From a virus (taxonomy: Duplodnaviria; Heunggongvirae; Uroviricota; Caudoviricetes): 17,695 nt of DNA. The stretch spans positions 1 through 17,695 of the IMG/VR virus record IMGVR_UViG_2562617151_000007. One strand, 5' to 3'. The notes below the pieces were generated by a model. It saw only the letters and a program-made list of their open reading frames with translations, did no database searches and was not told the origin of the DNA. Position 1 is the first letter of the stretch; the number at the start of each line of letters is the position of its first letter. The position numbers and the translations under genes are program-made. Of this stretch, positions 5,388 through 5,707 are shown piece by piece.

Positions 5388-5455
5388 GTCAATATTTCCT
5401 AATCCGATTTGTTGATGCCGAAGCCCTGACTGTTACAGCAGTTGGGGCTTCAACT

Positions 5456-5617
5456 TTACGCACCAATGCGCCCTTCCTTCTTAAAGCTTTCCATTACTCG
5501 CTGATAAATCTCAGAATTAACAGACCGACCATTTTCTTCCGCCACCTTGCGTACCAAATCCAATACTTCTTTAGGCCACCGCAAATTGAACTGTGGCATT
5601 TTGCTCATTCCTTTCAT
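5456..5617 (-). CDS. arc: Arc repressor (ribbon-helix-helix)
   Basis: Internal ATG of the 74-aa track ORF gives a 53-aa protein MKGMSKMPQFNLRWPKEVLDLVRKVAEENGRSVNSEIYQRVMESFKKEGRIGA, recalled as essentially P22 Arc. GAGGTG RBS upstream. Confidence 0.9.
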   Translation of the reverse strand: MKGMSKMPQFNLRWPKEVLDLVRKVAEENGRSVNSEIYQRVMESFKKEGRIGA

Positions 5618-5631
5618 GTTCACCTCACAAT

Positions 5632-5652
5632 ATAGGTCCACGGTGGACCTAT
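5632..5652. promoter_or_regulatory. Mnt operator palindrome
   Basis: Perfect inverted repeat ATAGGTCCACGGTGGACCTAT between arc and mnt, matching the known P22 Mnt operator. Confidence 0.8.
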
Positions 5653-5659
5653 TGAGAAT

Positions 5660-5680
5660 ATAGTAGAGTGCTTCTATCAT
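5660..5680. promoter_or_regulatory. Arc operator
   Basis: ATAGTAGAGTGCTTCTATCAT, the reverse complement of the P22 Arc operator ATGATAGAAGCACTCTACTAT, adjacent to the Mnt operator. Confidence 0.8.
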
Positions 5681-5707
5681 GTCAATACACTAACTTGGAG
5701 TGATGGC

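Follow-up and report, generated by a model that had tools for sequence, protein, structure and literature searches.

The window, i.e., the whole stretch of 17,695 nt analysed here, is a defective P22-like prophage of Escherichia coli of the argW/intS (KplE1) type, extending from intS to the xis (torI) end. Between its tailspike gene and gene 16 lie the antirepressor gene ant and the repressor gene arc on the minus strand and, divergent from them, the repressor gene mnt, with a short spacer separating ant from arc and a compact set of operators and promoters separating arc from mnt. The features are compiled in Table 1; the P22 reference is BK000583.

Table 1. Features of the window. The last column gives the corresponding P22 annotation in window coordinates (window coordinate = locus coordinate + 3871).
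Feature	Position	Strand	Basis or remark	P22 annotation
intS	1-1158	+
Hexapeptide-repeat acetyltransferase	1351-2022	+	between intS and tailspike
Tailspike	2042-4408	-
immI module (ant, sar, arc, mnt)	4509-5962	mixed
Intrinsic terminator after ant	4472-4491	-	terminator scan; GC-rich stem, then TTTTTAT	ant terminator at same place
ant, antirepressor, 292 aa	4509-5387	-	ORF; Bro-N N-terminal, P22AR_C C-terminal domain
Psar, inside ant codons 2-12	5353-5381	+	promoter scan	5353-5381
sar antisense RNA	5388-5455 (3' end by homology 5455-5457)	+	Rfam RF00262; homologous P22 misc_RNA sar coordinates	5388-5457
sar stem-loop I	5388-5416	+	fold; 7-bp stem GUCAAUA/UGUUGAU; loop with anti-Shine-Dalgarno UUCCU (5396-5400)
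sar stem-loop II (sar terminator hairpin)	5420-5451	+	14 bp, loop UACA, then AACUUU; P22 annotation as sar terminator	5420-5457
arc, 53-aa ribbon-helix-helix repressor	5456-5617	-	Pfam PF03869, 9.8e-31	5456-5617
Omnt (Mnt operator)	5632-5652 (17-bp core 5634-5650)		P22 alignment and annotation	5634-5656
Pmnt	5652-5680	+	TTGAGA-17-TATCAT; scan 10/12 match; identical to P22	5652-5680
Pant, drives arc-ant	5657-5685	-	TTGACA-17-TATATT; scan 11/12 match; identical to P22	5657-5685
Oarc, between and over Pant and Pmnt	5660-5680		ATAGTAGAGTGCTTCTATCAT; 21/21 identical to annotated P22 Oarc	5660-5680
mnt, 84-aa repressor	5708-5962	+	Pfam Arc and Repressor_Mnt domains
Rap1a-family ORF	5959-6294	+	Pfam E = 9.7e-15; signal peptide
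ORF of unknown function, 129 aa	6310-6699	+	phrog_2651 match
Gene 16	6724-8565	-
Chimeric ORF	8562-8882	-	replication-initiator fragment fused to gene 20 C-terminal end
O-like replication-gene fragment	8713-9378	-
cII-like gene	9552-9830	-
LexA-family repressor	10240-10956	+
N-like gene	11712-12008	+
HNH endonuclease	12685-13212	+	phrog_99, 1.2e-68
recT	13873-14775	+
gam-like gene	14753-15241	+
Small early-left ORFs to xis end	to 17382	+

The element had been described as defective in the original prediction, and its gene content agrees, since head, packaging, lysis and late-regulator genes are absent together with most of the replication genes; the missing stretch comprises most replication functions, the nin region, and the lysis, late-regulator and head genes through most of gene 20. 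The deletion can be located within the chimeric ORF, in which a match to a phage replication-initiator family (residues 3-53) is followed by one to the C-terminal end of P22 gp20 (residues 45-106), the junction near 8730 marking an internal loss of about 20 kb.

Several accessory genes are found along the element. The acetyltransferase gene occupies a position at which relatives have O-antigen-modifying genes and at which E. coli strain C has a GT2 glycosyltransferase, and an insertion into the early-left operon has placed the HNH endonuclease gene between the N-like gene and recT. The Rap1a-family ORF and the mnt stop codon overlap (ATGA), and in a lysogen the two genes would share a transcript; E. 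coli strain C has the same gene under the name “Rap1a/Tai family immunity protein”. As the Pfam family is one of type-VI-secretion immunity, this may be an orphan T6SS immunity gene carried by the prophage. The ORF that follows has a signal-peptide-like N-terminus and no Pfam match; with it, the interval from mnt to gene 16 contains two morons.

Arc, Mnt and the C-terminal half of Ant are P22-like and full length. Arc is identical to P22 Arc at 52 of 53 residues and Mnt to P22 Mnt at 66 of 81 (81%), with only two deviating positions in the DNA-binding half of Mnt (residues 1-48). The C-terminal 171 residues of Ant (122-292) are 85% identical to P22 Ant, while residues 1-121, containing Bro-N, are unrelated (Pfam PF02498, 2.8e-20, and PF10548, 6.7e-30, for the two domains of the protein). 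As had been predicted, mnt diverges from arc-ant, and the two promoters Pant and Pmnt are likewise divergent and overlap; both, as well as Psar, were recovered by a consensus scan that is independent of the P22 alignment. In that alignment, positions 5653-5720, holding Oarc, Pant and most of Pmnt, are identical to P22 base for base. The two operators were expected to be near-perfect copies of the P22 sites, and this holds for Oarc without exception and for Omnt apart from two bases (5633 and 5642), both changes keeping or extending the dyad symmetry. Omnt reads ATAGGTCCAC-G-GTGGACCTAT. At its centre (5642), P22 has C and the window G, which amounts to the same operator seen from the other strand, and at 5633 the replacement of the P22 C by T lengthens the dyad to a perfect 10+1+10 palindrome. 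Judged from sequence, both ribbon-helix-helix repressors, Arc and Mnt, are present, and each has its own operator at the divergent, overlapping promoters, as in P22 immI. By BLAST, the immI region matched 70 phage records, mostly of P22-like Salmonella phages.

The spacer between arc and ant is exactly 68 nt long, the length originally given, and runs from the ant start codon (ATG, 5385-5387, minus strand) to the arc stop codon (5456-5458, minus strand). When the whole window was scanned with Rfam, the only match at the gathering threshold was the sar RNA family RF00262 at 5389-5455 on the plus strand, covering the full-length model (1-68) with 65.6 bits as compared with a gathering score of 43 (E = 6.7e-12); our own covariance model scored the window sar at 84.9 bits. 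An RNA of this strand adjoins the ant start codon; between arc and ant, the Pant transcript is complementary to it throughout, the ant RBS included. A promoter search inside the 5' end of ant, which had been proposed as a check, returned a sigma-70-like element directed away from ant, consisting of a -35 box GTGAAA, a 17-nt spacer and a -10 box TATACT (5376-5381) with TG two bases upstream; this extended -10 could offset the poor -35 box. The RNA agrees with the P22 annotation of BK000583 in place and strand as well as in promoter and terminator. What had been put forward as a possible sar-like antisense RNA is, on this sequence evidence, better described as sar itself. A plus-strand ORF in the same place (5366-5635, 89 aa, GTG start) was also considered; it is the reverse strand of arc and the spacer, and its reading as a coding sequence is without support.

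Folded as a 70-nt RNA, 5388-5457 forms two hairpins with a minimum free energy of -29.8 kcal/mol (z = -5.96), which is reached by 0 of 200 dinucleotide shuffles. In stem-loop II, GAAGCCCUGACUGU and GCAGUUGGGGCUUC pair around the loop UACA, with three G-U pairs among the 14. The GAAGCCC...GGGCTTC hairpin named in the original prediction corresponds to this stem-loop and is present as described, but it does not overlap the ant RBS as was assumed. The ant Shine-Dalgarno sequence AGGAA, complementary to 5396-5400 and 8 nt ahead of the ATG, is 20 nt away and sits in the loop of the other hairpin (5388-5416), of which no mention had been made. A generic terminator scan made no call at hairpin II because the U-tract (AACUUU) is short and weak; as the P22 tail is identical, this is not counted against sar. 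A chance hairpin or a chance promoter is ruled out by the Rfam E-value, the shuffle z-score and the conservation described below. Details of the experimentally probed sar structure were drawn from the Rfam consensus and from secondary citations.

Stem I of the window (Table 1) differs in sequence from that of P22 (GUUGGU/ACUGAC), yet its pairing is retained in the folds. The 5' part of the spacer is unlike P22 because ant is of another type, with 97.9% nucleotide identity to the ant gene of phage Kapi1. Rfam identified sar in 12 further phage loci with different ant or arc genes, ten of which exceed the gathering score of 43, the exceptions being Klebsiella phage ST101-KPC2phi6.1 (38.6 bits) and Edwardsiella phage GF-2 (32.1 bits); the hosts across this phage set are Salmonella, Escherichia, Cronobacter, Klebsiella and Edwardsiella. 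The -10 block of Psar, TTGCTATACT, is near-invariant in 12 phages with differing ant genes and likewise in a set of viral contigs. These contigs were collected by searching IMG/VR for the hairpin II pattern, to which at least 120 contigs matched; adding the other loci and the window gave 127 occurrences with 71 distinct sequences among the matches listed. In all 71 of these listed sequences, the RNA start directly follows the ant start codon, a -10 element of the TGnTAnnnT type lies 6-7 nt upstream of it, and the initial ~30 nt fold into a hairpin whose loop has a pyrimidine-rich anti-Shine-Dalgarno sequence; hairpin II is likewise retained in all of them. At least 10 sequence types of stem I occur among the matches listed, and all of them fold into a hairpin exposing the anti-Shine-Dalgarno loop.

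For analysis of covariation, a covariance model comprising both helices was built, with which 100 matches (66 distinct sequences) were realigned. In the 66-sequence alignment, 92.7% of cells are paired, as opposed to at most 49.7% when the partners are slid by 1-3 columns; being fitted to the structure, the alignment somewhat inflates such pairing counts, but folds of the individual sequences, which are independent of it, show the same pairing. Changes on both sides were found in 8 of the 21 pairs, four per helix (helix I 4/7), amounting to 74 compensated cells, and none of 500 column shuffles reached the observed covariation score. Helix II is paired in 99.9% of cells and has four covarying pairs; helix I is paired in only 77.9%, since stem registers vary between families. 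MAFFT combined with RNAalifold on 18 representatives recovered helix II only, because the divergent stem-loop I was misaligned, a problem that the model with both helices resolved. The comparative set provides clean natural covariation for sar stem-loop I.

The Ant N-termini of these phages, which are otherwise unrelated, all begin with M-x-S-[I/V/L]-[A/S]. This shared start is explained by the extended -10 element of Psar, which overlies ant codons 2-5 (codons 1-5 = 5373-5387). An RNA promoter here constrains a protein N-terminus, namely the first five ant codons.

We regard it as highly probable that the region is a complete P22-type immunity-I (immI) module, sar included. By homology with P22, Pant would transcribe arc and then ant, and the divergent Pmnt would transcribe mnt; in the lysogen, Mnt on Omnt would silence Pant, and after a burst of expression Arc on Oarc would close both Pant and Pmnt. 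The third layer would be provided by Psar in the first ant codons, from which a 68-nt sar RNA is predicted to start at G5388 and to end at its own hairpin just ahead of the arc stop codon. Displaying the anti-Shine-Dalgarno sequence in loop I, sar would pair with the ant leader and cover the ant RBS, so that Ant translation would be blocked and arc left unaffected. While the sequence, position, strand, promoter consensus, fold, homology and covariation of sar are read from the DNA, we infer its transcription and its repression of ant from the P22 counterpart. For P22, sar is given as an antisense regulator of ant in PMC2629481, a secondary source citing Liao 1987 and Wu 1987 (Genes & Development) and Schaefer & McClure 1997, and as an antisense repressor of ant in PMC5415839; small-RNA sequencing of P22 infection recovered it (PMC13397905, locus P22J-sar). 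What sar and immI do in P22 is textbook knowledge, Rfam has a curated family for the RNA, and the variant found here is already present in sequenced phages and in many E. coli genomes. The importance of the finding is mostly one of annotation: in the E. coli variant sar is under-annotated, the RefSeq/GenBank records examined listing protein genes only.

Whether an intact module matters to a crippled prophage is a separate question. It may be a dead relic, intact only because the crippling deletion is recent and without a role for the present host; we consider this somewhat unlikely, and it bears on biological relevance rather than on the identity of the features. The deletion junction near 8730 occurs in 0 of 5,426 complete E. 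coli genomes, in which the whole defective element could not be placed either (best whole-window coverage, 49%), and the 381-bp control region (5340-5720) has a match in 681 complete E. coli genomes, with 100% identity in many, so that no time for decay is evident. With a junction unique in this way and an identical control region elsewhere, the deletion may be recent, and retention of immI need not mean selection. Against a mere relic speaks that argW remnants with independent deletions, at least two besides the window, still have ant, arc and mnt, and that one of them has entirely lost its own repressor region. These are the remnants of E. coli O15_8X (~17.9 kb, 4001-21905) and strain C (~11 kb, 2501-13634), which carry deletions different from that of the window (1-17695). 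All three retain intS, tailspike, ant, arc, mnt and gene 16 at one end; at the other end, torI is present in O15_8X and strain C, and the window extends as far as this xis end. The pattern looks like a recurrent loss of the prophage middle with retention of both ends. In strain C (CP029371), the whole early and repressor region is gone, ant, arc and mnt are full length, and the 381-bp control region is identical to that of the window. In O15_8X, an additional small ORF annotated as “ClpX C4-type zinc finger protein” (8872-9054) separates arc from ant, whereas the window has the sar spacer alone there; Emek and 611R6 also have an extra ORF between arc and ant.

The original prediction had suggested that a full antirepressor circuit in a defective element could still sense or induce related phages, and such action in trans on other phages is speculation. 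We think it rather improbable that the Mnt-Arc-sar-Ant module of the deleted argW remnants has been kept because it works in trans, be it that Mnt (with sar) silences ant of incoming or co-resident P22-like phages, or that derepressed Ant induces other lambdoid prophages. The remnants retaining immI genes nevertheless constitute a simple system for asking whether orphan antirepressor circuits mediate prophage cross-talk.

The mosaic structure of the locus bears on why the spacer is conserved. Homology to P22 begins at 5372, in ant codon 6, and homology to Kapi1 and PhiR12_1 ends at 5457; these limits make the sar module the linker common to ant cassettes and arc-mnt cassettes, both of which are exchangeable. 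In PhiR12_1, a 99%-identical ant-sar module with different arc and mnt genes (634-2646) is located between genes annotated as lambda-type tail tip assembly proteins K and L, a placement which implies that the immI moron also travels into siphovirus tail operons. One could take the spacer to be conserved as a recombination linker for swaps of ant and arc-mnt rather than for an RNA function in the present element, as the mosaic joints at 5372 and 5457 fall on it and the region is called “bsq2; boundary sequence” in the record of CUS-3. However, a pure linker needs neither compensatory changes in helix I nor a conserved extended -10 element 6-7 nt before a fixed start, and the RNA function is experimentally established in P22, all of which makes this reading very unlikely. 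The linker and RNA roles are compatible, a conserved functional RNA becoming the crossover point. That the hairpins act solely in the sense (Pant) mRNA, as intercistronic stabiliser, processing site or translational attenuator of ant, with the antisense transcript absent, is scarcely credible: complements of both hairpins do form in the arc-ant mRNA, but this would leave unexplained the conserved promoter out of ant and the U-rich tail on the plus strand only, and sar of P22 has been detected directly (PMC13397905).

Among known systems, the sar gene of the window is close to that of P22, which equally measures 68 nt, runs antiparallel to ant from the base beside its ATG, and ends at the arc stop codon. 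Both have a Psar with the -10 box TATACT and an upstream TG inside ant, both adopt a two-hairpin fold with the anti-Shine-Dalgarno sequence in loop I, and stem-loop II is identical save for one loop base. The differences lie in the sequence of stem-loop I, the ant leader and the Shine-Dalgarno sequence of ant (AGGAA in the window, GGAGA in P22), and are attributable to the unrelated Bro-N half of the window Ant; the divergent stem-loop I and leader also account for the lower Rfam score (65.6 bits versus 97.8 bits for P22). In Kapi1 (vB_EcoP_Kapi1) and PhiR12_1, ant and the spacer are 97-99% identical to the window at the nucleotide level and stem-loop I is of the same type (Rfam sar scores of 72.4 and 69.4 bits, respectively), whereas arc and mnt are others beyond 5457; a sar annotation is absent from both records.

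The immI regions of P22 and epsilon34 share with the window the gene order, the divergent overlapping Pant and Pmnt, an identical Oarc, Arc at 52 of 53 residues and a nearly identical DNA-binding half of Mnt, while the window differs in the flipped centre and one flank base of Omnt and in the diverged C-terminal (tetramerisation) part of Mnt. Downstream of mnt, the Rap1a-family ORF and the ORF of unknown function stand in place of orf59a and sieA of P22. With regard to prophage antirepressors acting in trans, Lemire et al. (2011) are reported to have described those of Gifsy phages in Salmonella. Heterologous lambdoid repressors are targets of P22 Ant according to Susskind & Botstein 1975 (cited in PMC2629481, a secondary source). 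By analogy with these, the ant gene of the window, placed under the control of its own repressors, could inactivate the repressors of co-resident prophages.
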